Assembly: GCA_963796315.1 (NCBI GenBank)
Contig: CAWCLH010000020.1
Coordinates: 127,245 to 191,244, forward strand
DNA from: an uncultured Actinomycetota bacterium
GTDB taxonomy: Bacteria; Actinomycetota; Thermoleophilia; RBG-16-64-13
Direction: 5' to 3'
Length of the DNA: 64,000 nucleotides
Part shown: positions 11,211 to 64,000 of the stretch, piece by piece
How the letters are laid out: each line of letters begins with the position of its first letter
Numbering within the stretch: the first letter of the stretch is position 1
Made by a program: the position numbers and the translations under genes
The notes under the pieces: model-generated
Database searches by the model: none
Seen by the model: the letters and a program-made list of their open reading frames with translations, nothing else
Told to the model about the DNA's origin: nothing

Positions 11211-13194
<1,984 letters not shown>

Positions 13195-24380: not shown

Positions 24381-24388
24381 CCTAGATC

Positions 24389-27254: not shown

Positions 27255-27355
27255 GGGGAGAGGTCCGCGGGCCGCCCGGGCTCCTCCATCCTTGAAATTG
27301 CGCGTCTTGGGCTCTAAGTTCAAACGTCGAGACGTACCTGGAGCGGAGGAAGAGC

Positions 27356-33532: not shown

Positions 33533-33648
33533 GGCGGCGGACTCGAACGCGGCGAGGCCCACGGTGCAGACCGTAGCGAGGGCCGCCGCCGTACTGGCGG
33601 CGCTGGAGTTGGTGCGCGACGCTGACCTGGCTTCTGGAGCCGAGGGCG

Positions 33649-34471: not shown

Positions 34472-34481
34472 GGGGCGAGGG

Positions 34482-35497
34482 ATGGGCGCCGTCATGGAGT
34501 GGATCGCCTTCGCCCTGCTCGCCTTCATCGCCCTGGCCGGGGCGCTGGGCATGGCCACCACCATGAGCATGTTCCGCAGCGGCATCTTCCTCATGGCCTC
34601 CTTCATCGGGGTGGCCGGTCTCTTCGTGCTGCTCTCGGCCGACCTGCTCGGCCTGCTCCAGGTGATGATGTACATCGGCGGCATGCTGGTCATGATCCTC
34701 TTCATGGTCCTGTTCAGTCACGACCCGGGCGGCAGCATGATGGCCGGGATGGAAGGGCTTTCGCCGGTAGAACGCGCCTTCAGCCTGGGTCTGACGCCCA
34801 ACGAGGAGGAGTCCGATCAGCCCGCTGACGGTGGTCCCATGGAGGGGATGACAGCCGGGGCGCACGAAAGCCACGAGGGCATGGGCGACAGGCCCGGCGG
34901 CCACGAGGGTCACGGCGGCATGCGGTGGGCACGAGGGCCACGAGGGCATGGAGGGCATGGCGGGCGGCGGGCACGAAGGCCACGGTGGTGGCCACGATGG
35001 CGGGCGGCGGGCACGAGGGCGACGACGGCATGGAAGGCATGGCGGGCGGTGAACAGGAGGGCCACGGCGGCATGTCCATGGCGGACATGAGCATGACCAC
35101 GCCGGTGAAGCGCTGGGCGGCCCTGCTCGGCGGCGTGCTGGGCGTCGGCCTGATGCTGTTGATCCTGCTGCGACCGGCCTGGCCGGTCGCAGCTCAGGTT
35201 CCCGACCCCGACTCGGCCCGCCGGGTGGGCGAGCTTCTCATGGGCAAGTACATGATGGCCTTCGAGGGGGCCGGCCTGCTCATACTGATCGGTATCTTCG
35301 GCGCCGTGCTCCTGGCCCGGCCGGGTTCGTACCCCGACCCGGCGTCGCGCGCCGTGCCGGTGACGAGCGACGCGCCTCCGCCCCCCATCGCCGAGGACCG
35401 CCCGCCGTCGGCCGACGCGTTTGTGCCTTCCGCAGCGGGCGTCGAGACCGAGGTGCTGGCCTCGCACGGGGACCGGCCGGGCGAGGACGGACGTTGA
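34482..35497 (+). CDS. nuoJ: Complex I subunit J homolog (NuoJ/ND6) carrying a His/Met/Gly/Glu-rich repeat insertion; frameshifts inside the repeat
   Basis: MGAVMEWIAFALLAFIALAGALGMATTMSMFRSGIFLMASFIGVAGLFVLLSADLLGLLQVMMYIGGMLVMILFMVLF.. (NuoJ core), then the HEGH/MEGM repeat, then a TM helix ..WAALLGGVLGVGLMLLILL. Confidence 0.7.
34840..35100 (+). repeat. Imperfect tandem repeat (about 45-nt units) encoding (M)AGGGHEG(H/D)..GMEGMAGG His/Met-rich motifs inside nuoJ
   Basis: Repeated nucleotide blocks ggcatgga(g/a)ggcatggcgggcgg and gggcacga(a/g)ggc(c/g)ac. Every reading frame of the region carries HEGH/GMEGM-type motifs. Confidence 0.7.
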
Positions 35498-35805
35498 GCG
35501 TCCCCATCGAGGCCTACCTGATCGTATCCGCCGGCCTGTTCGGCATAGGGGTCTACGCCATCGTGGCCCAGCGCTCCGCCGTCATGATCCTCATGGGGAT
35601 CGAAGTGCTGCTCAACGCCATCGGGCTCAATCTCGTCACCTTCTGGCGCTTCGTCGCCCCCGGCGACTACTCGGCCCAGATCTTCACCATCATCATCGTG
35701 ACCGTCGGGGCGGTGGAGATGGGGATCGGGCTGGGCATCATGATGCTCCTCTTCCGCAACCGGCGGACCGTGCAGGTGGACCAGTACCAGGATCTGCGGG
35801 GCTAG
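35494..35805 (+). CDS. nuoK: Complex I subunit K (NuoK/ND4L)
   Basis: MSVPIEAYLIVSAGLFGIGVYAIVAQRSAVMILMGIEVLLNAIGLNLVTF...IIVTVGAVEMGIGLGIMMLLFRNRRTVQVDQYQDLRG. Confidence 0.85.
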   Translation: MSVPIEAYLIVSAGLFGIGVYAIVAQRSAVMILMGIEVLLNAIGLNLVTFWRFVAPGDYSAQIFTIIIVTVGAVEMGIGLGIMMLLFRNRRTVQVDQYQDLRG

Positions 35806-35814
35806 GGGGGCCGC

Positions 35815-37760
35815 GTGAGCCTGATCTTGCTCCTCGTCCCTCTGCTGCCCCTCGGCGTCGGTCTCGTGCTGACGGCGACCGCGCTTCGGGGCGGGGGTCA
35901 CCCCGGATCCGGGGCCGGTTGGGCGACGGCCGCCGCCACCGCCCTCTCCCTGGCGGGCGTGCTGGTCCTCACCGGCAGCGAGACCGCGATCGGCATGAAG
36001 TGGCTGGTGAGCGGGAGCCGCTCGCTGCCCGTGGGCCTCGAGCTGACCGGGCTGACGTGGTTCGCCTCGTTGCTGGTGTCCGCAGTCTCACTGGCGGTGG
36101 TGGTGTACGCGATCGGGTACTGCAAGGGCCCGGGCGGACCCGTTTCTTCGCGGGGCTCTCGTTCTTCATCGGGGCCATGCTCACCTTGGTGCTGGCCGAT
36201 TCCCTGGTGCTTCTCTTCGCCGCCTGGGAGGCCGTGGGTCTCGCCTCCTTCCTCCTGATCGGCTTCCACTTCCAGGAACCTGCTGCGCGGCGGGCGGCGC
36301 TCCTCGCCTTCGTCGTGACGCGGTTCGGCGACCTGGGTCTGTTGCTCGGCTGGCTGTTCCTCGTGGACCGGACCGGGACGGCGGCCATCGCCGAGGTCCT
36401 CGGCCAGGCGCAGACGGGGGCGCTGACCGGAGCGGAGCTGACGCTGGTGACACTGCTCCTCTTCGGGGCGGTGGTGGGCAAGAGCGCCCAACTCCCTCTG
36501 ACCGCCTGGCTTCCCGCCGCGATGGCCGGGCCCACGCCCGTCTCGGCCCTCATCCACTCGGCCACGATGGTCGCGGCCGGGGTCTTCCTGGTACTGCGGC
36601 TCTTTCCTCTGTTCCAGGCGGCGCCCGCCACGCTGAGCGTGCTGCTCTGGGTGGGTCTGGGGACCGCCCTCCTGGCGGCGGTGATCGCCACGGTCCAGAT
36701 GGATCTGAAGCGGGTGCTGGCCTGGTCGACGGCCTCCCAGCTGGGAGAGATGGTCCTGGCTCTGGGAGTCGCCGCTCCGCTCGGTGCCGCCTTCCACCTG
36801 GCGACGCAGGCCAGCTTCAAAGCGGGGTTGTTCCTGGCCGCCGGCGCGGTGGACCACGGTGCGGGCAGCCGCGACCTGCGCCACTTGGGAGGCCTTTGGC
36901 GGCGCATGCCGGTGACCTCGGCCGCCTTGGCCGTCTCGGGCCTGGCCTTGGCCGGGATCCCCCCGTTCGCCGGTTTCTGGAGTGAGGAACTCCTGCTGGC
37001 GGCGGCGGTCCGTCATGGCCCCTGGCTGGGAGCGGTCGTCCTGGGCCTGATAGGCCTCGCCGGGCTCTACATGGGACGGGCCGCCGCCGCCGTCCTCTTC
37101 CGCTGGCCGGGGGCGCCCGAGCCGGAGGCCACCGATCCCGGGAGGCCGATGCTCGCCGGCCTGGCCGGCCTGGCCATCGCGGCGGTGGGCGTGGGGGTCC
37201 TCCTGCAGGCCTGGGGGACCGAGGTCCTCCCCTACCCGGAGGAGCCCGGGGCCGGGGTGGCTTGGCGCTGGGCGCCGTGGCCATGGCGCTGGCCGGTCTT
37301 GCCGCCGGGGGTCTGTTGGTCCGCCGCCGGGGGCCGGTCGCGCCGCTGGCCCCCTTCGCACGGCCCCTCCAGGGGGCGGTCGAAGGGTGCGGTCGTCGGA
37401 CCCGGTCGGCTGGTCCTGGCGCTGGCCGGCGCGGTCGACCGCGTAGAGCTCCTCTTGGACGGCGCCGCCGGCGCCGCCGGTCGCTGGGCGCGTCACGCGG
37501 CCGGCGTGGTCGACCGACTCGAGGGTGGCCTGGACCGGGGTGCCCTCGCCGCCGGCGGCGGGGGTCTGGCCGCGGCTCGGCTGGTCGACCAAGTCGAGGA
37601 CGGTGCGTTCGCTCCGGGGGGCGACGGGTTGGGTCGGACGCTGTCCCGGGGGGGAGGCCTTCTCCGCGGGGCCGAGAGCGGGCGAGTCTATCTCTACACC
37701 TTGGCTCTCTTCCTCTGGCTGGGAGCGGCTGTCCTACTGAGCTACGTCTGGTGGCGGTGA
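35815..37760 (+). CDS. nuoL: Complex I subunit L homolog (NuoL/ND5); frameshift near 36150
   Basis: ..AWEAVGLASFLLIGFHFQEPAARRAALLAFVVTRFGDLGLLLGWLFL...KSAQLPLTAWLPAAMAGPTPVSALIHSATMVAAGVFLV...WSTASQLGEMVLALGV.. is the NuoL/antiporter-like signature. Confidence 0.8.
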
Positions 37761-37764
37761 CACG

Positions 37765-39233
37765 ATGCTGAGCGCGGTGATCTTCCTCCCCTTGGTCGGC
37801 GGTCTGGTGGTGCTGGCGTTACCCGCCGGCCGGCCGGACTGGGCCCGGCGCGTCGCCCTGGCGACCAGTCTGGTGGAGTTGGTGCTGGTTGCCATCGTCA
37901 TCGCCGGGTTCGACAGGGGGCGGAGTGGGCTGCAGTGGCGGATGGACACCGCCTGGATCCCGTCGCTGGGGGCCCGCTACGACGTGGCCGTCGACGGTAT
38001 CTCGTTGCCTCTGGTGGCCCTGACGGCGCTGCTCGCGGCCGTGGTCATGGTCTACGTCCTGCCCCAGCGCGACCGCGTGCGCGGGCACGCCTTCCTCTTC
38101 CTGTTGATGACCACCGGTCTGATCGGCGTCTTCGTCTCCCGCGACCTGCTGCTCTTCTACCTCTTCTTCGAGGTCGGCCTGGTGCCCATGTACTTCATCG
38201 TAGGTGTCTGGGGGCACGAGCGCCGGCGTTACGCGGCACTGAAGTTCTTCCTCTACACCCGGGCGGGTAGCCTGGCGATGCTCCTCTCCTTCCTCGGGAC
38301 TCTACCTGCATACCTCCCCCCGGACGTTCTCCCTGGACGCCATGGCCGCCCATCCTCCCCTCACCGGGGCGGGCGCCGGTCTCGCCCTGCTCGGACTGGT
38401 CATCGGGTTCGGGGTGAAGCTGCCCATCGTTCCCCTGCACAACTGGCTGCCCGACGCCCACGTGGAGGCACCCACGGAGGGCAGCGTCATGCTCGCCGGG
38501 GTCCAGCTGAAGATGGGGGCCTACGGCCTGGTGGCCGTGATGCTCCGGGTACTCCCCGAGACGACACGGCGCTACGGCTGGGTGCCTCGTGGCCTTGGCG
38601 CTTCTCACCTTGGTCTACGGGGCGCTGGCCGCGCTCGCGCAGCGCGACCTGAAACGGTTGGTGGCGTACACCTCCGTCAACCACATGGGTTACGTCCTGC
38701 TCGCCGTGGGTGCCTGGGCCCTCCTCGAAGATCCCGGTGCGCGCCAGTTGGCGCTGAACGGCGCCGTCGTCCAGATGGTCAGCCACGGGCTCTTGACCGG
38801 CGGGTTGTTCTTTCTGGTCGGCATGCTGCAGGACCGGGCCCACACTCGGGATATGGGCCGCTTCAGCGGACTGCAGGCGCAGGTCCCCGTGTACAGCTGG
38901 ATGCTGGCACTGTTCGCCTTCGGCTCTCTGGGCCTGCCCGGGCTCTCGGGGTTCATCGCCGAGTTCCAGGTGCTGGGCGGCACGATCGGCGTGGGCGTCT
39001 GGGCCGCGGCGGTGGCGGTGCTGGGATTGATCGTCATCACCGGGCTCTTCGTGCGCATGGTGGTGGACGTCGTGATGGGATCCCCGGCCGCGCCCGTCAC
39101 GCTGGCCGACCTCCGGCCCCGCGAGCTGACCGCGCTCGTGCCGCTGGCCGGCTTCTCCCTGCTCATCGGCCTGCTCCCCGTGACCCTCGTGGCTGTCGTC
39201 GACGCCGCGACCGCAGCGCTGGCCGCGCTCTGA
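37765..39233 (+). CDS. nuoM: Complex I subunit M (NuoM/ND4); two frameshifts
   Basis: [19 protein letters not shown]...[46 protein letters not shown]...[41 protein letters not shown]...[18 protein letters not shown]. Confidence 0.8.
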
Positions 39234-39242
39234 CGGTCCGGG

Positions 39243-40742
39243 GTGGCCTCCACCGGCGCCATGCAGTGCCTCGACCTCTGGGCCGTCCTGCCCGAGTTGG
39301 TCCTGGCCGGCACCGGCTTGGTACTGGTGCCGCTGGCCGGCTTCGTGCACGGGCACGGTCGATGGCGCTACCTTCCCGCCGCCGTCGCCGCCATCGCGCT
39401 CCTGGCAGCCGGCGGACTGACGGTGCGCATGCTCGGTTGGCAGAGCCAGGCGGTGTTCTGCGATACCTACGCGTTGGACGGGTTCGCCCACGTCTTCAAG
39501 CTGCTGCTCGTGACCGGGGCGCTCCTCAGTCTGTTGGTGATCGCGGTCCACTTCCGGGACCGGGACCAGGTGGCCCACGCCCCCATGGCGCTCCTCTTCG
39601 TCACCTTGGGGGGGATCGGCCTTGCCTCTGCCCTCGACCTGGGCTTGATCGTCCTCTTCCTCCAGATGCTCAGCCTGCCGGCCTACCTGCTCATCGCCTT
39701 GGTGCGCAGTGACACGCGCGGCAACGAGGCCACCCTGAAGTACTTCATCTACGGGGCGGCCGCTCTGGCCATCATGGCCTACGGTCTCACCTTCCTCTAC
39801 GGCATGACGGGCAGCCTGGAGCTCCGGACCATCGGACAGGCCTTGGCGGAAGGGGGCGGGGACGCGGTGTGGGTCGCCGTGACGCTGGCCTTCGTCGTCG
39901 TGGGGTTCGGCTTCGAGATGACGCTGGTCCCCTTCCATTTCTGGGCGCCCGATGTCTACGCCGGGGGCACGGCGGCCGTCACCGGTTTCATCTCGGTGGT
40001 GCCCAAGTTGGCTGGGTTCGCCGCCGCGCTCCGGTTCGTCCTCCTGGTGTATCCGGATGGGTTGAGCGGCTGGCCGACGGCGCTGGCGGTACTGTCCGTG
40101 GCCACCATGACCCTGGGCAACCTGGTGGCCCTCCGTCAGACCCGCCTCAAGCGCCTGCTGGCGTACTCGAGCATCGCGCAGGCGGGCTACGTGCTGGTGG
40201 CCGTCGCCGTCAGCTCCCGGGTGCCGAGCGCACTGCCTGCGGTCGGCTACTACCTGGCGGCGTACCTCTTCATGAACCTGGCCGCCTTCGCCGTGGTCGC
40301 TCAACTCGAACGGCAGACAGGAAGCGACCGGATCGATGGGGTGCGGGGGTTGGGCCGGCGGGCACCCCTGCCCGCCGCCGTGCTGGCCCTGGCATTGCTG
40401 TCCTTGGCCGGCATCCCGCCGCTGGCCGGCTTCGCCGGCAAGGTGTTGGTGCTGACGGCCGCCATCGACGGGGGCATGGCCTGGCTGGCGGTCCTCGCGG
40501 CGCTCAACATGGTGATCGCGCTGGCCTACTACCTGGGGGTCATCGCCCAGATGTACCTCAGTCCGCCGCCGGAACCGGCCCTGCCCCACGAGACCGGGTC
40601 CCTGGGTCCCTGGACCGCCCTCCCCACCTCACCGCTTCACTGGCCCGCCTATGCGCTGACCACCGCCGGCACCCTGGTCTTGGGCATCGCGCCCTCGCTC
40701 GGACTTGCCCTGGCGGAGCGCCTGCGCGACCTGGTGACCTGA
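39243..40742 (+). CDS. nuoN: Complex I subunit N (NuoN/ND2)
   Basis: 499-aa intact ORF. ..[45 protein letters not shown]...[33 protein letters not shown]...[18 protein letters not shown]. Confidence 0.85.
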
Positions 40743-41564: not shown

Positions 41565-42329
41565 ATGCCAAGAAGCGAGTCCCTGGAGGCTCAGGCTCCC
41601 GGCCGTCCGGGGGGTCCGGCGGACGTCTGGCTCTCCGCGCGCGGACTCTCCAAGAGCTACGGGCGCGGGCCGGCGGTGGTGAACGCCCTGAGCGACGCCA
41701 CCCTGGACGTCAGGGCAGGCGAACTGATGGTCATCCTGGGGCCGAGCGGCTCCGGCAAGACCACACTGCTCAACCTGCTTGGGGGGCTCGAACGTCCCAC
41801 CGCGGGCTCGCTGCGGGCCTTTGGAGAGCCCTTGAGCGAGTGGGACGAGGACCGTCTCACCCGCTACCGGCTGGAGAAGGTGGGCTTCGTCTTTCAGTTC
41901 TTCAATCTCGTGCCCACTCTGACGGCGCAGGAGAACGTGGCCCTCCTGGCCGAACTGACCGGCCCGGAGCCGGAGGCTCGGGCCGAGGCCGCCCTGGCCG
42001 AGGTGGGTCTGGGAGATCGGCGGGATCACTTCCCCGGGCAGCTCTCGGGCGGCGAGCAGCAACGGGTCGCGATAGCCCGGGGACTGGTCAAAGGGTCTCC
42101 CCTGCTGCTGTGCGACGAGCCCACCGGCTCCTTGGACGTCGAGACCGGCAAGCGGGTGCTGACCGTGCTCCGGGACGTGACGCGGACCGGGGGCCGTAGC
42201 GTGCTCATCGTCACCCATAACGCCGTCATCGCCCGCATGGCCGAGCGGGTGGTGCGCATCCGCGACGGGCGCATCGTGGCCGACGACCTCAACCCGCATC
42301 CGGCAGAACCGGGGGATCTGGACTGGTGA
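41565..42329 (+). CDS. ABC transporter ATP-binding protein (MacB/LolD/FtsE-like)
   Basis: Walker A GPSGSGKTTLLN, ABC signature LSGGEQQRVAIARGL, Walker B LLLCDEPTGSLD. Confidence 0.85.
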   Translation: MPRSESLEAQAPGRPGGPADVWLSARGLSKSYGRGPAVVNALSDATLDVRAGELMVILGPSGSGKTTLLNLLGGLERPTAGSLRAFGEPLSEWDEDRLTRYRLEKVGFVFQFFNLVPTLTAQENVALLAELTGPEPEARAEAALAEVGLGDRRDHFPGQLSGGEQQRVAIARGLVKGSPLLLCDEPTGSLDVETGKRVLTVLRDVTRTGGRSVLIVTHNAVIARMAERVVRIRDGRIVADDLNPHPAEPGDLDW

Positions 42330-44704
42330 AGTACCTGGCGCTCAAGCGAAGGCGGGACGTGAGGCGGCAGCGGCGGCAGTTCCTGGCCGTGCTGGTGACC
42401 GTGGTGCTGGGGGTGATGCTCTTCGCCGCCTCCTACGACGCCTATCGCAACCTGGACGTCTCCTACCGCCGCACCTATGAACGCCTCGCCTTCGCCGACC
42501 TCGTGATCACCGGCGCGCGCCCGGGACTGGCCGCCACGGTCGGCCGTCTGCCCGGAGTGGCCACGGTGTGGGAACGGACGCAGGCCGACGTGCCGCTCCG
42601 CGTAGGCGGCCAGGTCCTGCTGGGCCGGGTGGTGGGGTTGCCCCCGAGCCGCCAGCCGGCGGTGGACCGCGTGGAGGTGACGGCCGGCCGCTACCTGGCG
42701 GCCGGGGGCGGTCGGCAGGCCCTCGTCGAGACGCATATGGCCGACCACTTCCATCTGACCCCAGGCGCCCAGGTCCAGGTGTTCACCCGGACGGGGTGGC
42801 AGCCGTTCGGCGTCCGGGGGGTGGCGGTATCGCCGGAGTACCTCTGGCCGGCCCGGGACAACCAGACCCCGTTCGAGTCGGCGGGTGAATTCGGCGTGCT
42901 GTTCGTGCCGCAGGACCTCGTGGCCCAGACCAGGGCGACCTCCACTGAGGAGCAGGTGCTGGTGCTCTACGCGCCCGGCGCCGACCGAGCGGCCACCGAG
43001 GCCGCCGTCCGCCAGGCCGCGCGGGCGGCCGGGGCGGCCGGGGTGCTGGCCCAAGCCCAGCAGGCCTCCAACAAGACCCTCTCCCTGGACCTCACCGGCT
43101 TCGCCCAGATGTCCGTGCTGTTCCCGCTGATGTTCCTGCTGGCGGCCGGCCTGGCCACCTACCTGCTGCTCACCCGCCTGGTCTACGCCCAGCGCCCGCA
43201 GATCGGTACGCTGCGCGCGAACGGCCTCTCCCGCCGCACCATCGTCTGGCACTACCTCTCCTACGGCCTGGCGGTGGGACTCGTCGGAGCGGTAGTAGGG
43301 GTCGTCTTGGGCGTGGCCGCGGGGTGGGGGATCACCGGTGCCTACACCAAGGAGCTGGGCATCCCGGATACGGTCCGCGCGCTGCGCTGGTTCACCCCCG
43401 TCGCCGGACTGCTCTTCGGGCTGGTGGTGGGAGCGCTCTCCGCCTGGGTGCCCAGCCGGGCGGCGGTGAAGCTGACCCCGGCCGAGGCGCTGCGAGGTCT
43501 GGCCCCCGTGGGTCCCGGCCGCCCGAGTCTGGCCGAGCGCCTGGTGCCGCCGCTGCGCCGTCTACCGGTGCGCTGGCGGATGGTGCTGCGGGGTCTGGGA
43601 CGGAACAAGCGGCGCAGCCTCTCGACGGTGATCGGCATCGTGCTGGCGCTGATGCTGGTCCTCACGTCCTGGGGCATGATCGACACCACCGAGATCCTGC
43701 TCCACCGCCAGTTCGTCCAGGTGGAACATCAGGACGCGGTCCTCGTGCCCGCTTCGACGGCCCCGTCCCTGCTCGGCGCGGTGTCCGCGGTGGACGGGGT
43801 GTCGGCCGCCGAGACGGTGGTCTCGGTGCCGGTGTCGGCGCGGAGCGGCACGGCGTCCTACTCGACCCAGCTCATGGCCTTCGACGCCGGCACGCGGATG
43901 CACGGGTTCGTCGGCACCCCGGACGGGCTCCCCGCGGATGGCGTGCTGGCCGGCTCGTCGCTGGCCGGGGAGCTCCACGTCACGACGGGGTCGATGCTGA
44001 CCCTCCAGCTGGCCGGGGTCTCGCGGGCGGTCCGGCTCCCCCTGCGCGGCTTCGTCGACGAGCCGCTGGGCACGCTCGTCTACGCGAGCAAGGCCGCGCT
44101 CGCCCAAGGCCTGACGGCGGCAGGGGCGGGGGACCTCTCCACCTTGGTCTCCAGGCCGGGCGACGCCGTGGTCATGGTCCGCCTGGCGGCGGGCAGCGAT
44201 CGCGCGCGCGCCCTCGCCTCGCTGCGTCAGCTTCCCGGCGTGCTCACCGTGAGCGACAGCCGAGCGCTCTACGACCAGATCCGGCAGTACATGGGGTTCT
44301 TCTACCTGTTCGTGGGGGTCATGCTGGTGTTCGGCGGCGCCATGGCCATGGCGCTCATCTTCAACACGGTCTCGGTGAACCTGGCGGAGCGGGCCGGTGA
44401 GTTGGCCAGTATGCGGGCCAACGGCATGTCCCGCCGGACGATGGCCGGGCTGGTCACGGTCGAGAACCTGGGGTTGACCGCCGTCGGCATCCTGCCCGGT
44501 CTTCTGGTGGGTTGGGCCGCGGCGGCCTGGTTCATGTCCACCTACACCAGCGACATGCTGCACTTCGGTCTGCAGTTCCGGACCCGCACGCTCGTGCTGG
44601 CGGCCGTAGCCATGTTCGTGGTGACCGGGCTCTCGCTCTGGCCCAACCTGCGCTCCGTGGGCAAGGTCGACGTGGCCCAGGTCGTCCGCGAGCGCTCGCA
44701 GTGA
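42326..44704 (+). CDS. ABC transporter permease with two FtsX-like domains (MacB-type permease)
   Basis: 792-aa intact ORF overlapping the ATPase stop. Repeated 4-TM FtsX-type segments separated by large periplasmic domains. Confidence 0.8.
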   Translation: MKYLALKRRRDVRRQRRQFLAVLVTVVLGVMLFAASYDAYRNLDVSYRRTYERLAFADLVITGARPGLAATVGRLPGVATVWERTQADVPLRVGGQVLLGRVVGLPPSRQPAVDRVEVTAGRYLAAGGGRQALVETHMADHFHLTPGAQVQVFTRTGWQPFGVRGVAVSPEYLWPARDNQTPFESAGEFGVLFVPQDLVAQTRATSTEEQVLVLYAPGADRAATEAAVRQAARAAGAAGVLAQAQQASNKTLSLDLTGFAQMSVLFPLMFLLAAGLATYLLLTRLVYAQRPQIGTLRANGLSRRTIVWHYLSYGLAVGLVGAVVGVVLGVAAGWGITGAYTKELGIPDTVRALRWFTPVAGLLFGLVVGALSAWVPSRAAVKLTPAEALRGLAPVGPGRPSLAERLVPPLRRLPVRWRMVLRGLGRNKRRSLSTVIGIVLALMLVLTSWGMIDTTEILLHRQFVQVEHQDAVLVPASTAPSLLGAVSAVDGVSAAETVVSVPVSARSGTASYSTQLMAFDAGTRMHGFVGTPDGLPADGVLAGSSLAGELHVTTGSMLTLQLAGVSRAVRLPLRGFVDEPLGTLVYASKAALAQGLTAAGAGDLSTLVSRPGDAVVMVRLAAGSDRARALASLRQLPGVLTVSDSRALYDQIRQYMGFFYLFVGVMLVFGGAMAMALIFNTVSVNLAERAGELASMRANGMSRRTMAGLVTVENLGLTAVGILPGLLVGWAAAAWFMSTYTSDMLHFGLQFRTRTLVLAAVAMFVVTGLSLWPNLRSVGKVDVAQVVRERSQ

Positions 44705-44744: not shown

Positions 44745-46613
44745 TTAGGGAAGGGTGAAGACGTAGACCGTGTTATCCGTGGGGATGCCCGAAGCCTGCG
44801 CCGCCCCGGTGGGTGGGCCGCCCCAGCCGTTGGGGAAGCAGATGTACTCCTTGCCGTTGACCGCGTAGACGACCGGGTTCCCGTGCCAACCGGACGTACC
44901 GTAGAAGGTGTAGAGTTCCTTGCCGCTGTCCGAGTCGAGGATCATCATCTTGCGATCGTGTCCTCCGGTGATGACGAGACCGGAGGCGGTGCACGTGATA
45001 CTGCAGATCAGCGGCAACGAGGTGCGGGTCTCCCACTGCACCTTCTTGCCGGTCACGTCCACGGCGGTGACGTGACCGTAGGAGGATTGCGGCTCCGAGA
45101 AACCGCCCCAGTAGAACTCACCGGCTATGAATTGTTGGTCCACCTTGGTGTGCTTGACCGGCATCTCGGTCAGGGGGATGAAGCAGAGCTTACGTTCAGG
45201 GTCGTAGGCTTCGTTCGCCCACTCCTTGCCGCCCATGTTGCCCGGCGCCACCACGGTGCCATCCTTGGTCGGAATCAGCCGAGGGTCGGCCTTGGGCACC
45301 CCGTCCGGGCTCACGGTACCCCAGTTGACAAGATGCGCCACCTTGAGCGCGTATACCGGCTTACCGTTCGTCCGATCGAGCGTATAGAAGTAGCCGTTCT
45401 TGGCCGAGAACATCACCACTTTGCGCTGTTGCCCGTCGATGCTCAGGTCGTCGATGATCGGGGAGGTGGTGCAGTCCAGGTCCCAGACGTCATGGGGGAC
45501 GGTCTGGTAGTACCACTTGAGCTTGCCGGTATTCAGGTCGAGGGAGACCACGCAGGTTGCGTAGAGGTTGAGGCCGGCCCGCTGGTCGCCGTTTATGTCG
45601 GGTCCGGCGTTGCCGATCCCGCAGAAGATGGCGTTCATGGCCGGGTCGTACGAGCAGGTCATCCAGTTCGGGCATCCGCCGGTCTTCCAGGAGTCGCCCT
45701 GCCAGGTGTCGTGTCCTGGTTCTCCGGGGCCGGGGATGGTGTACCAGCGCCAGATCTGCTTGCCGGTGTTGATGTCGTAACAGTCGATGAATCCGCGCAC
45801 ACCGTACTCCCCGCCGGAGATGCCCACGATGACCTTGTTGCCGATCACCTGAGGGGCCAGCGTGGCACTGTATCCCAGGCCTACGTCGGCCAACCGCGTA
45901 TCCCAGACCAGTTTGCCCGTGCGGCTGTCGAGGGCGACCAGGCGTGCGTCGAGCGTGGCCATGACCACCTTGCCGGCGCCGATGCCCACCCCCCGATTGG
46001 GAGCGTCGCAGCAGAGGATCGGGTGGGTGCCCTGCAGTTTATGGGCGTAACGCCAGAACGGCTTGCCGGTGACCGCGTCCACCGCAAGGACGTTGTTCCA
46101 CGGTGTGGAGAAGTACATGACGCCGTCGACCACGATGGGTGAGGCCTCGAAGGCGTTGTGCAGGCCGGTATCCAGGGACCAGGCCAACTTGAGGCTGTTC
46201 ACGTTGTCCTTGTTGATCTGGGTGAGGGGGCTGTAGCGCTGGGACTTGTAGGTGCGTCCGTAGAGCAGCCAGTTGTCGCCGTCGGCCTCCGCGTTCATCT
46301 GGCGGGAGGCCAAGTCGCTGGGGAGGGCAGGCGCCTCTTTGATGAGGAAGGAATCGAACCCGAGGGGCGGGAGTTGAGGATTCGCCACCTCCGCCGATTC
46401 CGTTGGCACCGGCGCGCCGCTCTGGGTGGTCGGCGGTAGGCCGATTCGGTAAGCGGCCGCGGGAACTGCCGACCCGGCGGTGGGGGTGCTGCCGGAGGAA
46501 TCGGCGCAACCGCCCGCGAACACGGCGGCGAGAAGGACGATGCCCATGCAGCCGGCGACGGTGCGGGTGCTGCTCTTTGCTATCAGGGGGGATCGCATCG
46601 CTCTCTCCTTCAT
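44745..46613 (-). CDS. PQQ-dependent alcohol (methanol/ethanol) dehydrogenase, quinoprotein 8-bladed propeller; predicted lipoprotein signal; XoxF-like D-L-D motif
   Basis: Signal peptide with ..LAAVFAGGCADS. Adjacent Cys pair HPILCCDAPNRG. W-motif repeats. ..TVPHDVWDLDCTTSP places an Asp two residues after the catalytic Asp, as in lanthanide-dependent XoxF/PedH. 622 aa, intact. Confidence 0.85.
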   Translation of the reverse strand: MKERAMRSPLIAKSSTRTVAGCMGIVLLAAVFAGGCADSSGSTPTAGSAVPAAAYRIGLPPTTQSGAPVPTESAEVANPQLPPLGFDSFLIKEAPALPSDLASRQMNAEADGDNWLLYGRTYKSQRYSPLTQINKDNVNSLKLAWSLDTGLHNAFEASPIVVDGVMYFSTPWNNVLAVDAVTGKPFWRYAHKLQGTHPILCCDAPNRGVGIGAGKVVMATLDARLVALDSRTGKLVWDTRLADVGLGYSATLAPQVIGNKVIVGISGGEYGVRGFIDCYDINTGKQIWRWYTIPGPGEPGHDTWQGDSWKTGGCPNWMTCSYDPAMNAIFCGIGNAGPDINGDQRAGLNLYATCVVSLDLNTGKLKWYYQTVPHDVWDLDCTTSPIIDDLSIDGQQRKVVMFSAKNGYFYTLDRTNGKPVYALKVAHLVNWGTVSPDGVPKADPRLIPTKDGTVVAPGNMGGKEWANEAYDPERKLCFIPLTEMPVKHTKVDQQFIAGEFYWGGFSEPQSSYGHVTAVDVTGKKVQWETRTSLPLICSITCTASGLVITGGHDRKMMILDSDSGKELYTFYGTSGWHGNPVVYAVNGKEYICFPNGWGGPPTGAAQASGIPTDNTVYVFTLP

Positions 46614-46622
46614 CGCGCGGGC

Positions 46623-48134
46623 CTACGCCGGACACGCGTCGTCACCAACCAAGCGGACAGCGCCAGGATCACGGACGACGACCAGGCCGATCGGGATCAC
46701 CAGGTATGGGCTGAGAGGGTGGGAACGAGGTCCGTAGATACTCGCCGCCGTGACGTCGACCGACACCGAGCCCACCATGAAGGGGTGCACCATGCAGTAG
46801 TACATGCTGGTGCCGGGCGCGTCGAAGCGCCGGGAGAAGCTATCTCCCGGCGACAGTGGGAGCGAGTTCCAGCTGCCGGCGGGCTGCTGCGAAGCCGGTT
46901 TGCTTGGGTCCCAGTTGTTCTCGGTGCTGGTGTGGGAGGCCTTGTCCTTGTTGACCCAGACCACCGTCGTCCCCGGGAGCACGACCAGGTCCTTGGGGTG
47001 GAAGGCCAAGTCTTTGATGGTGACGTAGACCGTCTGGGACTGCTTCGCGGCGACGGCCACGGGCGCGACTGGGTTGTCGGTGACGGCGCGGGTGGTCGTG
47101 GTCTGGTTCGGCGACACGCCCGGAATGGGAACGTCGACCGCCGTGCGGAGGTCGGGCTGGCCGCCCCGGTTCCGGATGTAGGTGACCAGCCGCCAACGCG
47201 TATCCTCGGAGAGGGGCGTGTGCGACGGCATGAGTTTCCCGGGGACGCCCTTGGTGATGATGGTGAAGAGAGCGGTGTCACTGCCCCCGCCGTAGTACCA
47301 ATCTCGGTCGGACAGCTTGGGTGCGAGCCAGGTGCCGTTGACCTCTCCGCCGTGGCAGTAGAAGCAGTACAGCTTGGCGGCCGACTCGCCGTCGTTCACC
47401 TCCGCTTGGTCGTAGGGCGTATAGGGGTTCTTGAGCGTCTTGACGGCCCCTGTTTCCACGGCGGCCTTCGAGGCCCGATCGAAAAGGCCCGTCACGTAGA
47501 CCGCCAAGGACCAGCGGGCCTCCTCCGTGAGCTTGTCCTTCTGCGGCGGCATGAAGGTGCCGGGGATACCGTTGGAGACGATCTCGAAGTTCCGTCCAGT
47601 GACAGAGTTGCGCGCGGTGAAGTCCGTGGGGCGGGGCCAGACGTAGGGGTCGCCCTTGGCCCAGGACCCGTCACCCTTGCCTTTGTCTCCATGACATGGG
47701 GCGCATTTCTGCAGGTAGTTCGCGCCGGCCATGGCCAGATCGGGAGGTTTGTCGCTGGTCTTCCAGTTCTTGTCCCACTCCCGAGTGGTGTCCAGCGGCT
47801 GAGTCTCCAGAAAGGCCAGGATGTCGTCGAAGCCCGCGCGACTGATGTTGGGGTGGGCGGGCATGGCCGTGCCTGGGAGACCCTTCTCGACGATCGAGAA
47901 GGCCATGTCCGCCGTTTCCTTGACGGCCGTCAGGTTCGCCGGAGGAGGTATGAACGTGGAGTGGGCGGGACCGTCCCCCTCTGCATCCTTGTCGTGGCAG
48001 ATCTCGCACTCGTGCAGGTAGGCATTCTTGCCGGACTGCACGTTTCCCCGCCCACCGCCGTCGAGGCGCCCTGCAGCAGGACAAAGACGGTGAGCGCGAG
48101 GGCCTAAGAGCGGGAGGACAGCGACGGTGCGGCC
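46623..48134 (-). CDS. Triheme c-type cytochrome fused to a C-terminal cupredoxin domain; N-terminal signal region has indels
   Basis: Three CxxCH motifs (CEICH, CAPCH, CFYCH). The C-terminal domain ..TVVWVNKDKASHTSTENNW...YYCMVHPFMVGSVSV has type-1 copper ligands (H, C, H, M). Confidence 0.7.
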   Translation of the reverse strand, partial: GRTVAVLPLLGPRAHRLCPAAGRLDGGGRGNVQSGKNAYLHECEICHDKDAEGDGPAHSTFIPPPANLTAVKETADMAFSIVEKGLPGTAMPAHPNISRAGFDDILAFLETQPLDTTREWDKNWKTSDKPPDLAMAGANYLQKCAPCHGDKGKGDGSWAKGDPYVWPRPTDFTARNSVTGRNFEIVSNGIPGTFMPPQKDKLTEEARWSLAVYVTGLFDRASKAAVETGAVKTLKNPYTPYDQAEVNDGESAAKLYCFYCHGGEVNGTWLAPKLSDRDWYYGGGSDTALFTIITKGVPGKLMPSHTPLSEDTRWRLVTYIRNRGGQPDLRTAVDVPIPGVSPNQTTTTRAVTDNPVAPVAVAAKQSQTVYVTIKDLAFHPKDLVVLPGTTVVWVNKDKASHTSTENNWDPSKPASQQPAGSWNSLPLSPGDSFSRRFDAPGTSMYYCMVHPFMVGSVSVDVTAASIYGPRSHPLSPYLVIPIGLVVVRDPGAVRLVGDDACPA

Positions 48135-48228
48135 TCGTATGCGTGTGGTCCTCCAAGCCATCGGCCACCTCCGACACCTTGTGAATCATGTCGCACACGA
48201 GGTACCGCCGGCTCTGCTTGAGTAAACG

Positions 48229-50411: not shown

Positions 50412-51994
50412 GTGAGCGACCAGGAGGACCGGTCTGGGCAAGGCGAGGGTCGTCTCGCGCAACCAGCGTCCGACGTTCCAGAGGAGGAACGAGCAAGGGG
50501 GTATTTGAAGGATCGCTATGGTTCGGGCGCTGAGGTCATCACCGGCTTCAGCGGAGTCGTCTACGAGCACGAGGACAGCGCTGCTCGGATCTGGCTTCTC
50601 AGCAGCGTGGTGTGGTTCATCGTGGTCACCACCTTCGGCATCATCATCGCCACCGAACTGGCCATCCCCGAGATGTTTCACGGCATTCCCTGGCTGGTCT
50701 TCAGCCGGGTGCGACCCTGTCACGTGGAGGGCGTGATCTTCGCCTGGCTCACCACGATGTACTGGGGAGCCATCCTGTACTTCAGCCCCGTCTGCTGGGG
50801 ACACGCCGGCTCTGGGGCGAGAACTGGGCTTACTGGTCGGCGTGGGTCTACAACATCACCCTGACCGTCGGCTTCATCGGCATCCTCAGCGGAGGCAGCC
50901 AGGGCCGCGAGTACGCCGAGTTTCCCTGGATCGTGGACGTGTTCATCCTCGGGGTCTTCATCCTCAACGTCGTCCTGTTGGTAGGGACGGTCACGGTCCG
51001 GCACGTGCGTCCGCTGTACGTCAGCATGTGGTGGGCCCTGGCGGCACCGATCTGGGTCTCCGCCTCGATCTTCATCGAGAACGTGGTCTGGCGCCCCAAC
51101 GGGAGCATCTGGGGGGCTCCCTCCGGCAGCCTACCCACCGGTATCCACGACGTCATGATCAACTGGTGGGGGAACCACAACCTCTTCGGACTGTGGCTCA
51201 CTCCGGTGCTGATCGCGGTGACGTACTACTTCGTCCCCCGGATCACCAATACCCCCCTCTACAGCCACACGCTCTCGCTGATCTCGTTCTGGGGCATGAT
51301 CTTCGTGTATGCGGCCGTCGGCGATCACCACCTGCTGCAATCGCCCACGCCCGGATGGCTCAAGACCATCGCCTCGGCCAACAGCGTGTTCATCCTCATA
51401 CCGGTGTTCGCGTTCTTCACCAATGTCTTTCTCACCATGCGAGGACAGTGGGAGAGGTTCTTTAGCAGCCTGCCCCTACGCTATATACTGACCGGCTTTG
51501 TCTTCTACATCCTGGTGAACATCCAGGGCGCCGGCCAGGCCATCCAACCGTTCAACCGAATCATCCACTTTACCTACTTTGTCATCGGGCACTCACACCT
51601 CGCCCTGTTAGGTGGATTCACCATTCTCGGTATGGGAGTCATCTACTACATGTTGCCCCATATACTGGGCAAGCCACCCTATTCCCGAACGCTCGCCGAA
51701 TGGCAATACTGGTTGGTCACCTTCGGTTTTCTGCTGTTCTTCACCTCACTCACCATCGCCGCGTTTATCCAAGGCCAGAGCTGGTTGAACGGCCAGCCCG
51801 AGGTGAACGTGCTTCCGCAGCTGCGTATCTGGAACATCACCCGTCTCATCGCCGGAGTGATGATCTACGCCTCGGCCTGGATCCAGGCGTACAACGTGCT
51901 CATGGTCGTCGTGGTCAACACGAGGGAGCGCGTGGCCCGCAAGACCCGGAACGATGCCCGCTCTGCCCTGAGCACGAGCGGCGTCCGGCCGTGA
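50412..51994 (+). CDS. ccoN: cbb3-type (C-family) heme-copper oxidase subunit I, CcoN; frameshift near 50800
   Basis: GTG after GGAGGGAG. ..IWLLSSVVWFIVVTTFGIIIATELAIPEMFHGIPWLVFSRVRPCHVEGVIFAWLTTMYWGAILY.. matches the CcoN N-terminal helices. Conserved His pairs (..GDHHLLQSP.., ..IGHSHLALLGG..). Confidence 0.8.
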
Positions 51995-52004
51995 GAGGGG
52001 GTGT

Positions 52005-53465
52005 GTGATGGCTCGCGAGTGGTTGCCTGAGTACGAACTCTCGCCTCGCAACTGGGGCACGCACCCTCCCAAGAAGATGATGATGACGCCGCTGATGATC
52101 CTGCTCGGCGGTTTCTACGCCTTCGCGGTGCCGACCTTGGTGGCGGCCTTCTTCCAGCTGATGTTCTTCAGCGCACCGGTATCCAACGAGTGGGCTCCTT
52201 TGGCCGCATCCGCCGAGCGGGGACGGGCGGTCTACGTCTCGAACGGCTGTGTCTACTGCCACAGCGGCTTCAGCCGTCCGCAGGACGTGCGCAACGGCCT
52301 CTACTACCTCTACCCGCGCGTGTCCCTGCCCGGCGACTACGTGACCAGTGACAGCAGTCCCAACGTGTTCGGTACGGCCCGCATCGGTCCCGACCTCAGT
52401 CACGAGAGCGGCTTCCACCCGGACGACTGGCAACGGGCGCACTTCAACGACGCCCGCTTCGTTACGCCCTTCTCCATCATGGCCCGGTTCGACTTCCTCA
52501 ACGACCAGCAGGTGGAGGACCTGATCGCCTATGTGCAGACGTCCGCCGGCAAGAGCGGGCTGGTCAGGTACGCCGGCGAACTGTACATGAAGAAGATCTT
52601 CCTGGCGGCCAACGGGCTCACCGAGCAGGACATCCCCAAAGGCTACACCGCTGACAAGCTGACGCTCAAAGAAGTTCAGATGAAGTACGTGATGAACGCC
52701 CCGGAGGCGCCCAGCGCCACCGTGGACGGACTTCCCTTCCCCGACGTCGTCAACTTGAACGTGGTGGATCGAAGCTACTGGCTGGTCTCCAACCCCATGC
52801 CCCTGACGACGGGGAACCTCATCGAGGGTCGCCGGATCTTCCAGCAGCGCTGCCAAGGCTGCCACGGCCAAGGGGGCGCGGGCAGCAGTGAAGCCGCGCG
52901 GTTCATGCGGCCGCTGCCCGCTGACTTCACCAGCGAGGACGACCAGGCAAACGGCTCGGATGCCGGCCCCGGCGACTTCTACTATCGGGTCCTGCGCGGT
53001 ATTCCGGGCACGGCGATGGAGAACTTCGGTTCTCGGCTGCGCGTCGACGACATCTGGAAGGTCGTCCTCTTCCTCAAGACCATCCCCAACGGGGGACTGC
53101 AGGCCGACCGTGTGCCCACGCCCGACATGTACGTGCAGTGGAAACCGGGCTCGGACATCATGGGTTACGTGCAGAAGCACGCCATCGATCAGAACAAACG
53201 CTTCATCGGACAGGACACTCCCAGTGACACCGACCCCTTCATGCTCGAGGCCAAGCGGGAGTGGGCCGGCATGAACGACAGCGACAGCTTCACCGTGCCC
53301 GGCTACGGAGAGGTCTCGCTGAGCGCGGCCGCCCGGGACATCAAGGCCATCTACGACAACCTACTCAACCAGGGGTGGAGCGACTTCACCGCCCGCGGAG
53401 GCCACCCGGTCCCGCCGGCCGAGCAGAAGACCGCCGCCCCGGATCTGTCCAGGGAGATGCGGTGA
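52005..53465 (+). CDS. ccoO: cbb3 oxidase cytochrome c subunit, CcoO-like monoheme domain fused to a second CcoP-like heme c domain
   Basis: N-terminal TM anchor. ..YVSNGCVYCHSGFSRP...RIGPDLSHESGFHPDDWQRAHFNDARFVTP (CcoO core). Second CxxCH ..QQRCQGCHGQGG... 486 aa, intact. Confidence 0.8.
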   Translation: MMAREWLPEYELSPRNWGTHPPKKMMMTPLMILLGGFYAFAVPTLVAAFFQLMFFSAPVSNEWAPLAASAERGRAVYVSNGCVYCHSGFSRPQDVRNGLYYLYPRVSLPGDYVTSDSSPNVFGTARIGPDLSHESGFHPDDWQRAHFNDARFVTPFSIMARFDFLNDQQVEDLIAYVQTSAGKSGLVRYAGELYMKKIFLAANGLTEQDIPKGYTADKLTLKEVQMKYVMNAPEAPSATVDGLPFPDVVNLNVVDRSYWLVSNPMPLTTGNLIEGRRIFQQRCQGCHGQGGAGSSEAARFMRPLPADFTSEDDQANGSDAGPGDFYYRVLRGIPGTAMENFGSRLRVDDIWKVVLFLKTIPNGGLQADRVPTPDMYVQWKPGSDIMGYVQKHAIDQNKRFIGQDTPSDTDPFMLEAKREWAGMNDSDSFTVPGYGEVSLSAAARDIKAIYDNLLNQGWSDFTARGGHPVPPAEQKTAAPDLSREMR

Positions 53466-58588: not shown

Positions 58589-59996
58589 TCACTCGAGCGG
58601 CTCGCTCATCTTCCGGCGCAGACGCTCCATGCCGTTGATGCGGATGTCCAGGAGCCGCTCGATGCGGGCCTTGGCCTCCAGGCCGCGGGCGGCGCCGGGC
58701 ACGGAGGTGATCACCCCGATGTCCAGGTCCTCGCGCAGCTCGCGCATCACGTTCTCGTCGGACAGGTCCCGCACGCTCACGTCGAGCTTCTCAGCCACAT
58801 ACGCCTTTGCCTCTGGGAGTCGCATCTTGCGGGCGAGCTGCATCCGGGCAACCAGATCTCCGGCTGTGCGGATGCCTCCCATCCCGGAGGCGAGCGCATG
58901 GGCCGCGGGCATCCCGTAGGGATCCCCGGTGCCTACCTATAACCCGTCGCAGCGGGCGATCTCCACCATGGCGACGCTGGCCCGGCTGACGATGTCGATG
59001 GGCGGGCACTCCGCCATGGGCACCCCGCCCACGCCGATACCCACGTTGGGGTGGACGGGGATGGTGGCGGCCTCCCCGCAGGCCTTGCAGAGGGTGACCG
59101 CCCGGGCGATGTTCCACGAGGCCGACCGGCGGGTGTTGGTGTTGACCACCGGCCCGAAGACGTGCGCTCCCGCCTCCTCGCACCAGCTTCACCTGGTCGT
59201 GGGGGTAGAGCCCGGCCAGCCGCCGGCCCTTGTACTCGATCTGACCGTGCATGCCCAGGACGAACTCGGCGGCCATGCCCACCTCGATGGCCAGGTCGGT
59301 GGTGGCGGCCAGCTCCTCCACGGTCTCGAGCGTGGCCAGGAACTCCGCGTCGCCGGCGGAGGCCGTGGTGTCGAAGTTGATGCCGTCGGTGCCCACCTCC
59401 GCCATCTTGCGGGCGACGTAGAGCATGTCGCGCTTCAAGACCTGGGCGGCCTGCTCCTGGGCCTCCCGGGCCTCGGCGATCTTCCCCGCGGGCAGCAGGT
59501 CGGCCGGGTTGCCGAAGGGGCCGTCCGGGCGGGCGTAGAGGGCCAGGTTCGGCATGGCTCCGTAGAAGATGGGCACGATGGTGGAGTGCAGCACGCTCTC
59601 CATGGTCTGCTGTTCCATGGCGATGATCGGCTTGACCGGCTTGTACGAGTAGTCGACCTGGCCGACCTCCATGGTGTCGAAGCCGAAGGCCCGCTCGTAG
59701 ATGCGCACGCCCATCTCCCGGCTGACAGGGACGCCGACGCCGCTGGAGCTCTGCGCCCCGTAGAGCGCGTTGACGCAGCCGTCGTCGGTCAGCACCACCT
59801 CGTGCCCGCGTTCCACGCCACCATACGGCCGGGGGCGGTCATCAACTCGAAGAGGCGGTCCTGCTCCTCCTGGGTGAGCGGGGCGACGTCGCCGGCGACC
59901 ACCGCCTCCTCGACGCCGGCCACGATGTCGCGCCGGATGTCGTCCGCGGTCGCCTCGACGGTCTGGCCGTCGCCCATCCGGGTCAGGTACGTGGTC
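58589..59996 (-). CDS. mtbB: Dimethylamine:corrinoid methyltransferase MtbB-family protein with an in-frame TAG (UAG) codon at the pyrrolysine position; two indel frameshifts elsewhere in the gene
   Basis: Homology runs through three frames: [32 protein letters not shown]...LMTAPGRMV / ..[68 protein letters not shown]...[19 protein letters not shown]...[36 protein letters not shown] / ..[27 protein letters not shown]...[33 protein letters not shown]-[TAG, plus-strand cta at 58937-58939][32 protein letters not shown]...[40 protein letters not shown]... The reading frame is identical on both sides of the TAG, and both flanks carry MtbB-like conserved blocks. Confidence 0.75.
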
Positions 59997-60664
59997 ATGG
60001 GTCCGTCACCTCCTGGTCGCGCGGCGACCAGCTCGAGGGCCTTGGCCACCGCCTCCTGGGCGTCCTCCGCGTACGCGTCGGCGCCGATCTTGTTTGCCCA
60101 ATGCTGGGTGACCACCGCGCCGCCCACCATCGTCTTGACCTGATCGCGGATACCCGCCTTCTTCAAGAGCTTCTCCAGCTGCTTCTGGCCGAGCATGGTG
60201 GTGGTCATCAGGGCGGAACTGCCGACGATGGAGGCGCCGGTCTCCTGGGCCTTCTCCACGAAGGCGGTCACCGGGACGTCCCTGCCCAGGTCGACGACGT
60301 CGAAGCCATAGACCCGGAACAGCGTCGCCACGATCCCCTTGCCGATGTCGTGCACGTCCCCCTCGATGGTCCCCAGCACGGCGATGCCGGCCTTCTTGGC
60401 CTTATCCTCTTCGGGCAGGTGCTGCTCGAGGACGGCGATGGCGGCCGTCATCGCTTCGCTGGCCAGGATGACCTCGGGTAGGAACAGGTGCCCGCGCTCG
60501 AAGCGTTCGCCCACCTGTACCATGCCCGCCCCGTAGCCTCGATCGATCACCATGACCGGGTCGAGCCCCATGGCCATGGCCTCGTGGGCCAGCGCCACCG
60601 CCTGCCGCTCGTCCGCCTCGACGATGGCCGCGGCTGCGGACGCCAGCAGTTCCTCTTCTGTCAT
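59993..60664 (-). CDS. mtbC: Methyltransferase-cognate corrinoid (B12-binding) protein, MtbC/MtaC family
   Basis: ATG at 60664 after GAGGAGG. MTEEELLASAAAAIVEADERQAVALAHEAMAMGLDPVMVIDRGYGAGMVQVGERFERGHLFLPEVILASEAM... (B12-binding-2 cap). ..GTIEGDVHDIGKGIVATLFRVYGFDVVDLGRDVP...GSSALMTTTM...MVGGAVVTQHWANKIGADAY (DxHxxG...SxL...GG cobalamin-binding motifs). A TGA in the +1 frame overlaps the mtbB ATG (ccATGAcc). Confidence 0.8.
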
Positions 60665-60721
60665 AGATGCCTCCTCGGGCACGGGCCGATAGCGGCTGCC
60701 TTCGTCCAGGCTAACACTGCG

Positions 60722-60910: not shown

Positions 60911-61048
60911 GACGTGCCCCTCTCCCGGCGAACTCCCTGTCGGCATCCGTTCTACCCAATCCCGGGCAGCAGGAGCACGCGCGGTCGCTTCTTCGCCGGG
61001 CGCTCCGTCGGCGGTCGCCGTCCGTCCTTTCCGGTACCATACAAGTCT

Positions 61049-64000
<2,952 letters not shown>

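Follow-up and report, generated by a model that had tools for sequence, protein, structure and literature searches.

A probable pyrrolysine-dependent mtbC-mtbB pair for dimethylamine demethylation in a high-GC, probably actinobacterial genome

Whether a UAG codon within a conserved bacterial methyltransferase gene is read as an amino acid, ends a truncated product or sits in a dead gene is the question raised by mtbB, a dimethylamine:corrinoid methyltransferase gene on the minus strand of the 64,000-nucleotide stretch of DNA analyzed here (positions 127,245 to 191,244 of contig CAWCLH010000020.1; hereafter the window). Our analysis indicates that mtbB and the corrinoid protein gene beside it, mtbC, probably form a functional pair that demethylates dimethylamine by means of pyrrolysine (Pyl) inserted at the UAG, in a high-GC genome that is itself probably from the Actinomycetota and Thermoleophilia-like. 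The coordinates of the features are collected in Table 1.

The initial annotation of this DNA had reported a match to the MtbB family along the whole gene, and profile searches with the frame-repaired protein bear this out: it scored 691 bits against Pfam PF09505 (Dimeth_Pyl; positions 2-462 of 463) and 588.8 bits against the NCBIfam equivalog TIGR02368 (cutoff 369.1). The gene had been placed at 58589-59996; the 58589 end stands, and the other end falls 2 nt short of the start codon, which reaches 59998. The two indels mentioned at the same time are indeed present in the assembled sequence, as seen both in DNA alignments with relatives and in a repair test. When the unrepaired gene is translated in three frames, the MtbB-like frame switches near 59820 and reverts to the first near 59180, and repair of both indels produces one 469-codon open reading frame (ORF) whose sole internal stop is the TAG at codon 354. 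Across this TAG the reading frame is unchanged, just as had been claimed. A sequence search of the PDB returned no solved structure of the MtbB family, and an AlphaFold model built from a 9-sequence alignment (mean confidence, pLDDT, 47.5) was too poor for use.

One argument that the UAG is a coding position comes from the corresponding column in other members of the family. A protein search returned 2901 homologues, of which the best 120 were inspected; nearly all of these (>100) have been called in the databases as 353-residue proteins ending in ..DGL at the TAG column. We therefore turned to the codons themselves in the DNA of 79 loci from species-representative genomes, using the motif ..DG[ILV]-x-[ILV]GxGDP.. 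to find the position. Codon x was TAG in 79 of 79 motif occurrences (74 loci), Methanosarcina included, and of the 5 loci that escaped the motif scan, 4 were separately confirmed to have TAG and one (L041) was left out. The survey took in Methanosarcina sp. T3, DH2 and Z-7115 along with Methanolobus and Methanococcoides, and in the alignment with Methanosarcina homologues that the initial annotation had proposed, the window TAG falls in the shared Pyl column. Its placement of the TAG at the canonical pyrrolysine site is thus upheld by a column that is TAG from Methanosarcina to Actinomycetota, as well as by an RNA family model that starts on the TAG (see below). A sense codon (Q) displayed in this column by a 'full-length' homologue, P0017, was discarded as a counterexample when the underlying codon proved to be TAG, which the gene caller of its source had translated as Gln; P0118, which also displays Q there, was left out of the codon check.

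The sole sense codon found in the Pyl column is the TTG (Leu) of L084, a gene at 6001-7401 of JADQBM010000005.1 (GCA_016278615.1). Both it and the window gene match PF09505 over the full length, but L084 is only 50% identical, its genome has a GC content of 35% and no corrinoid gene adjoins it, whereas the window mtbB has mtbC beside it. On sequence grounds, L084 is a non-Pyl MtbB paralogue, and the window gene is not of such a kind. The same column bears on the possibility that the TAG is an assembly error that replaced a sense codon. The assembly is certainly error-prone, and to that extent an erroneous codon would be conceivable, but its errors are indels and not substitutions, and the codon is TAG in the relatives examined apart from the TTG of this one distant, low-GC paralogue. 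We consequently assign this explanation a next to negligible probability.

The sequence that follows the TAG retains the marks of a coding region. In the 115 codons past it, GC content by codon position is 0.74/0.45/0.88, identity to relatives is 74-81%, and the ratio of nonsynonymous to synonymous substitution rates (dN/dS) is 0.22-0.40, compared with 0.14-0.47 for segments ahead of the TAG. Given the high GC content at third codon positions (GC3) and the low dN/dS, this downstream part is under purifying selection and translated in the lineage, as is predicted for a read-through codon and not for a terminator.

The lineage to which the gene belongs also possesses the machinery for decoding UAG as Pyl, because pyl cassettes lie beside mtbB in four of its relatives. 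We searched 185,579 species-representative genomes for related loci and considered the best 80. The nearest MtbB relatives are in Actinomycetota metagenome-assembled genomes (MAGs; 60-78% identity) labelled Thermoleophilia, Gaiellales, 'Actinomycetes bacterium' or 'Actinomycetota bacterium', and at least 25 distinct species-level Actinomycetota MAGs with a TAG-containing mtbB are found among the best 80 loci. The MtbB proteins of Desulfobacterales and Firmicutes, at about 55-67% identity, are interleaved with those of more distant Actinomycetota, and those of Methanosarcinales stand at about 55%. With a best protein match of 77% and a best genome locus of 78%, the source species is not otherwise represented among the GTDB representatives or the further assemblies searched. 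In a neighbor-joining tree, the window MtbB falls in a clade consisting of Actinomycetota, bar one MAG labelled Deltaproteobacteria (L018), and its neighbors there are Soudan_30, FR_37, SKS1.bin6 and OS_PC.

In the first of these neighbors, Soudan_30 (L009; JADQBG010000024.1, 78-11401), where MtbB is 71% identical to that of the window, the genes form a compact methylamine island in the order MtaA/CmuA-family methyltransferase (MT2)-pylT(CUA)-pylSn-pylSc-pylB-pylC-pylD-sodium:solute symporter-corrinoid protein-TAG-split mttB-TAG-split mtbB, and its Pyl proteins all exceed their NCBIfam equivalog cutoffs. Similar islands, with pyl genes beside mtbB, are present in L020 (on a 4.6-Mb contig of Thermoleophilia FR_37), L023 and L025. 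All three yielded pylSc, pylB and pylC; pylT and pylSn turned up in L023 and L025, and pylD in L020. NCBI annotation already contains a 'methylornithine synthase PylB [Thermoleophilia bacterium]'. The same group is rich in paralogues, with 3-4 diverged mtbB copies per MAG, each with a TAG, in FR_37 (L008, L011 and L020) and in OS_PC_MetaG.mb.176 (L007, L012, L025 and L042), and several mttB-like copies lie near these paralogous loci. As for the window itself, the view that its host looks actinobacterial gains support from a GC content of about 69%, from the nesting of MtbB and MtbC among Actinomycetota MAGs and from the gene order tsaE-tsaB-rimI-tsaD-groES-groEL at 8655-13200, which we take to be the mycobacterial arrangement; an actinobacterial host is thus the probable one.

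Several observations weigh against a functional, Pyl-decoded gene in an actinobacterial host. As assembled, mtbB has no uninterrupted reading frame owing to its two 1-nt indels, and while the first of these lies in a homopolymer, the second is outside any. Within the 64-kb window, ARAGORN found no pylT, a tRNA-Ala being the sole tRNA, and tblastn at E <= 1e-5 found no PylSn, PylSc, PylB, PylC, PylD, MtaA-type MT2 or MttB. The source contig was also absent among the best 120 matches of a PylB profile search, in which the gene may be fragmented, elsewhere or lower-ranked. TAG is the stop of about one in four clean genes in the window, so a Pyl-tRNA would read through some normal stops. Finally, the host taxonomy rests on MtbB and MtbC phylogeny, GC content and gene order, and a search with NuoN gave mixed nearest named matches (Methylobacterium, Deinococcus and Desulfobacterales, at 58-64%) that point to no clear phylum. 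Comparison of a GroEL fragment with the PDB was uninformative on host taxonomy.

The use of TAG as a stop can be described more fully. TAG is the stop codon of 4 of 17 clean window ORFs, compared with 11 for TGA and 2 for TAA. Over the window as a whole, it closes the genes for aldehyde:ferredoxin oxidoreductase (AOR), the first moaD-like protein, a PspC-like protein, RsfS, two cupredoxin/cytochrome proteins and a methyltransferase. Of the TAG terminators listed in the initial annotation, those of aor, the first moaD-like gene, pspC and rsfS are correct, but the second moaD-like gene has TGA as its stop and a frameshift hides where groES ends. Because TAG is an ordinary terminator of other window genes, the recoding of UAG is gene-specific and not genome-wide, as had been proposed from the same stops. 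Such gene-specific recoding alongside TAG stops is normal in Pyl-using bacteria. Other in-frame TAG candidates in the window were rejected, as all of them turned out to be adjacent genes with their own starts.

The frequency of TAG stops, together with the lack of pyl genes in the window and of any traced to the source contig among the best 120 PylB matches, would also be expected if the Pyl machinery had been lost or was never present, such that the UAG terminates translation and either cuts the product short at 353 residues or splits the gene. This is highly improbable in our estimation. The post-TAG codons remain conserved and under purifying selection, the same layout recurs in all relatives with pyl cassettes in those whose flanks are readable, and no start codon with a ribosome-binding site directly follows the TAG, the first ATG being 8 codons further on. 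We therefore continue to favor read-through of the UAG with Pyl.

A different challenge comes from the frameshifts, which could mean that mtbB is a recent pseudogene: a former Pyl-type gene with real frameshifts, in which translation from the ATG ends after 69 residues. That both indels stand in the assembled sequence, that frameshift 2 is no homopolymer error and that neither pyl genes nor a second methyltransferase were found nearby in the 64-kb window would all be consistent with such decay. However, essential genes of the same window bear frameshifts in equal or greater numbers. The uvrA gene (60914-63890) has at least 6 and is spread over at least 7 ORFs, with successive matches to positions 3-68, 68-187, 190-233, 261-374, 375-435, 477-675 and 724-745 of the UvrA profile; groEL (11570-13116) has at least 2, its alignment to Escherichia coli GroEL running through three frames; and guaA (22880-24385) is in at least 2 pieces. 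The frameshifts cluster in widely conserved housekeeping genes, tsaD (9900-11006) among them. Long lineage-specific genes are intact, including those for an FtsX-like permease (42221-44701), a ClC channel (27296-29443), a pyrroloquinoline quinone (PQQ) dehydrogenase and NuoN. The pattern in the housekeeping genes suggests consensus or polishing artefacts of long-read metagenome assembly, not gene decay.

Within mtbB, the out-of-frame middle segment has kept full family similarity and its GC3 bias, and its dN/dS is 0.14-0.26 against the closest relatives and 0.47 against the more distant L023, a pairwise measure that is blind to very recent inactivation. The gene contains no further stops or deletions. 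We thus consider a pseudogene unlikely, if less so than a loss of the Pyl machinery. Since frameshifts likewise disrupt uvrA, groEL and guaA, genes that cannot all be dead, the two frameshifts of mtbB most likely represent assembly errors, to judge from the sequence of the window as a whole.

The mRNA beyond the UAG carries a further feature in keeping with Pyl-type mtbB genes. The window sequence matches the full length of the Rfam model PYLIS_2 (RF02509), the pyrrolysine insertion sequence of mtbB, and positions 1-3 of the model (UAG) align on the window TAG. To see what part of this element is conserved, we surveyed 120 nt around the UAG in 38 distinct actinobacterial mtbB sequences. A stem-loop corresponding to the second hairpin of PYLIS_2 stood out, with 98.6% of cells paired as opposed to 27-53% in slid controls, and its score was reached by 0 of 500 shuffles. 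Its compensatory changes occur at third, synonymous codon positions; pair 81/96, for instance, is CG in 21 sequences, GC in 12, AU in 2 and UA in 1, and is A-U in the window mtbB. The stem-loop also belongs to the minimum-free-energy fold of the window sequence (z = -2.3). By the same approach, the UAG-proximal hairpin of PYLIS_2 was rejected as a conserved structure: it was 70.5% paired, a one-column slide did equally well, and it contains non-canonical pairs in the window. PYLIS elements have been reported to be dispensable for Pyl insertion but to increase its yield, and mtbB has been described as having its own, fairly canonical structure (PMC3639795). Given this yield-raising but non-essential role, the stem-loop may plausibly promote read-through to a modest degree.

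Taken together, these data can be accommodated by a straightforward mechanism. Pyrrolysyl-tRNA(CUA) would compete with release factor 1 at codon 354, so that MtbB is translated through the UAG. The tRNA would receive its pyrrolysine, made by PylBCD, from a split PylSn/PylSc synthetase, all encoded by pyl genes that should lie elsewhere in the genome, and the stem-loop 60-105 nt past the UAG may favor read-through. In Methanosarcina, Pyl is said, in work by Krzycki from 2004 (cited in PMC10805028), to activate dimethylamine so that a methyl group can move to Co(I)-MtbC. By analogy with that MtbB, the Pyl side chain would bind and activate dimethylamine and the methyl group would pass to the Co(I) corrinoid of MtbC, from which a second methyltransferase, presumably also encoded elsewhere, would take it onward. 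The frameshifts in mtbB would be errors of an indel-rich assembly. We infer, then, that the source genome contains pyl genes, that mtbB is intact in the organism and that its product has the chemistry of MtbB.

Comparison with known systems places the window gene among its actinobacterial relatives. It shares with Methanosarcina MtbB1-3 the PF09505/TIGR02368 family over the full length, a single UAG in a common column, an adjacent cognate corrinoid gene, as in the pairing of MtbB with MtbC, and an Rfam element that was built on mtbB. It differs from them in its identity of only about 55%, in a host that is a high-GC bacterium and no methanogen, and in a genome where TAG is a common terminator; the downstream methyl acceptor cannot be coenzyme M here, and in relatives an MtaA/CmuA-family methyltransferase lies by the pyl genes. 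Much closer are the mtbB/mttB-pylTSBCD loci of other Actinomycetota, for which we compared JADQBG010000024.1 (Soudan_30), JAOSKU010000001.1 (Thermoleophilia FR_37), JAGXFW01 (LH_M24), JAHJSA01 (OS_PC_MetaG.mb.176) and JAJZQZ01 (SKS1.bin6). At 65-78% identity in MtbB and 72-75% in MtbC, and with a GC content of 63-68%, these loci have the UAG position, the mtbC-mtbB order and the distal stem-loop in common with the window, but the window pair stands alone beside uvrA, without mttB, MT2 or pyl genes in 64 kb. The Pyl systems of Desulfitobacterium hafniense, Acetohalobium arabaticum, Bilophila wadsworthia and Thermincola would use the same expected mechanism, UAG read-through in genomes with TAG stops, and their split PylSn/PylSc is also seen in the actinobacterial relatives. 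These anaerobes belong to different phyla from the window host, and the window carries genes for oxygen respiration and one-carbon (C1) oxidation; to our knowledge, such a gene set is unlike those of the strict anaerobes with bacterial Pyl systems.

The suggestion in the initial annotation that a Pyl-dependent methylamine methyltransferase in such a bacterium has little precedent does not survive this comparison. In addition to the 25 or more Actinomycetota MAGs, four of them with a full or near-full pyl cassette, and the PylB names in NCBI, there is support in the literature. Guo et al. (2022) reported PylRS genes in two Actinobacteria and noted that bacteria always encode PylSn and PylSc in separate genes (PMC9630628), in agreement with the split seen in the actinobacterial relatives, a 2025 review repeats the two Actinobacteria (PMC11764691), and Ellenbogen et al. 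(2023) found that Actinobacteriota MAGs from Stordalen Mire express mttB and mtbB genes that encode pyrrolysine (PMC10805028). One of our loci, L022, may come from the same mire, judging only by its isolate name, fen_672. The window mtbB thus adds a further species to an already-known actinobacterial group of Pyl-type mtbB genes.

The product of mtbC scores 252.5 bits against TIGR02370 (cutoff 215.3) and 244 bits against the MtbC equivalog NF041607, below the cutoff of 350 for the latter. Its gene lies directly upstream of mtbB, and the protein shares 72-75% identity with the MtbC encoded just ahead of mtbB in L011, L020 and L025. As assembled, mtbC has no in-frame stop ahead of the mtbB ATG and reads on into mtbB (59999-60030, minus strand), whereas in relatives MtbC ends in ..ELVEG or ..ELVQG followed by a stop shortly ahead of mtbB. 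Out-of-frame TGAs are present at the junction within GGAGGTGA and in an ATGA overlap, and GGAGGTGA likewise occurs upstream of the mtbB ATG in L011 and L020. Two explanations fit the absent stop: a third indel, or a genuine fusion of MtbC to MtbB. In the Pyl-encoding relatives L011, L020, L023 and L025, mtbC itself terminates with TAG, and Pyl-tRNA could extend some of their MtbC molecules to the next stop. On its far side, mtbC of the window is flanked by uvrA, and a short ORF found downstream of mtbB gives a weak match to S-layer homology; nothing beyond mtbC-mtbB itself is syntenic with the relatives. A scan of the operon for promoters and terminators gave nothing exceeding shuffled expectation.

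Table 1. Positions of the mtbB gene, its codon and RNA features, and other elements in the window
Feature	Position	Strand	Details and evidence
mtbB, dimethylamine:corrinoid methyltransferase gene	58589..59998	minus	ATG 59998-59996, TGA 58591-58589; 469 codons once two 1-nt indels are repaired
In-frame UAG, predicted pyrrolysine codon 354	58937..58939 (cta on plus)	minus	Sequence; TAG column in relatives; PYLIS_2 positions 1-3
PYLIS_2 match (Rfam RF02509, mtbB pyrrolysine insertion sequence)	58840..58939	minus	Full model 1-100; 70.4 bits vs gathering score 36; E 5.6e-15
Conserved mRNA stem-loop, 60-105 nt past the UAG	58835..58880	minus	Inner hairpin 58849-58866; covariation in 38 actinobacterial mtbB
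Frameshift 1 in mtbB	~59819/59820	minus	G-run short by one G (ATGGT-GGCGTGG); DNA alignment with four close relatives, three-frame translation, repair test
Frameshift 2 in mtbB	59180	minus	Surplus C (CTGGTG[C]GAGGAGG), original frame restored; DNA alignment with four close relatives, three-frame translation, repair test
mtbC-like cognate corrinoid protein gene	60011..60682	minus	TIGR02370, PF02310, PF02607; two B12-binding domains, motif DVHDIG
Shine-Dalgarno-like AGGAGG	60009..60014	minus	10 nt ahead of the mtbB ATG; read from sequence
Aerobic/C1-oxidation gene set	44745-48161, 3862-5148, 50534-53465, 33577-40739	minus, minus, plus, plus	

The gene content of the remainder of the window raises the possibility of an unusual setting for Pyl. 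The window encodes a dehydrogenase of the PQQ methanol/ethanol family (515 bits against TIGR03075; cutoff 480), a cytochrome c(L)-like/cupredoxin protein as its partner, a hexulose-6-phosphate synthase fused to RraA in a bifunctional protein, subunits of a cbb3-type oxidase and complex I genes; AOR, at 2-1552, is typical of anaerobes. We know of Pyl use having been studied only in anaerobes. That Pyl-dependent methylamine demethylation operates in an oxygen-respiring, methylotroph-like actinobacterium is for now a tentative idea that we think more doubtful than not, as it requires a contig that is not chimeric, pyl genes in the genome and use of both gene sets by the same cell under compatible conditions. 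If true, an aerobic actinobacterial case would move Pyl-based C1 metabolism beyond strict anaerobes, a modest extension of what is known.

For genome annotation, the locus illustrates how standard gene callers split UAG-containing genes and how indel-rich long-read assemblies can make live genes look dead. The wider point comes from its relatives: the Pyl-type mtbB genes of Actinomycetota form a large clade, rich in paralogues and with pyl cassettes of its own, that receives scant coverage in the literature and is not known to have been put to an experimental test. If the mtbB of the window is active, the organism can use dimethylamine as a methyl donor by way of pyrrolysine, and one more uncultured high-GC actinobacterial lineage would then join the bacteria that rival methylotrophic methanogens for the methylamines of soils, peat and sediments.

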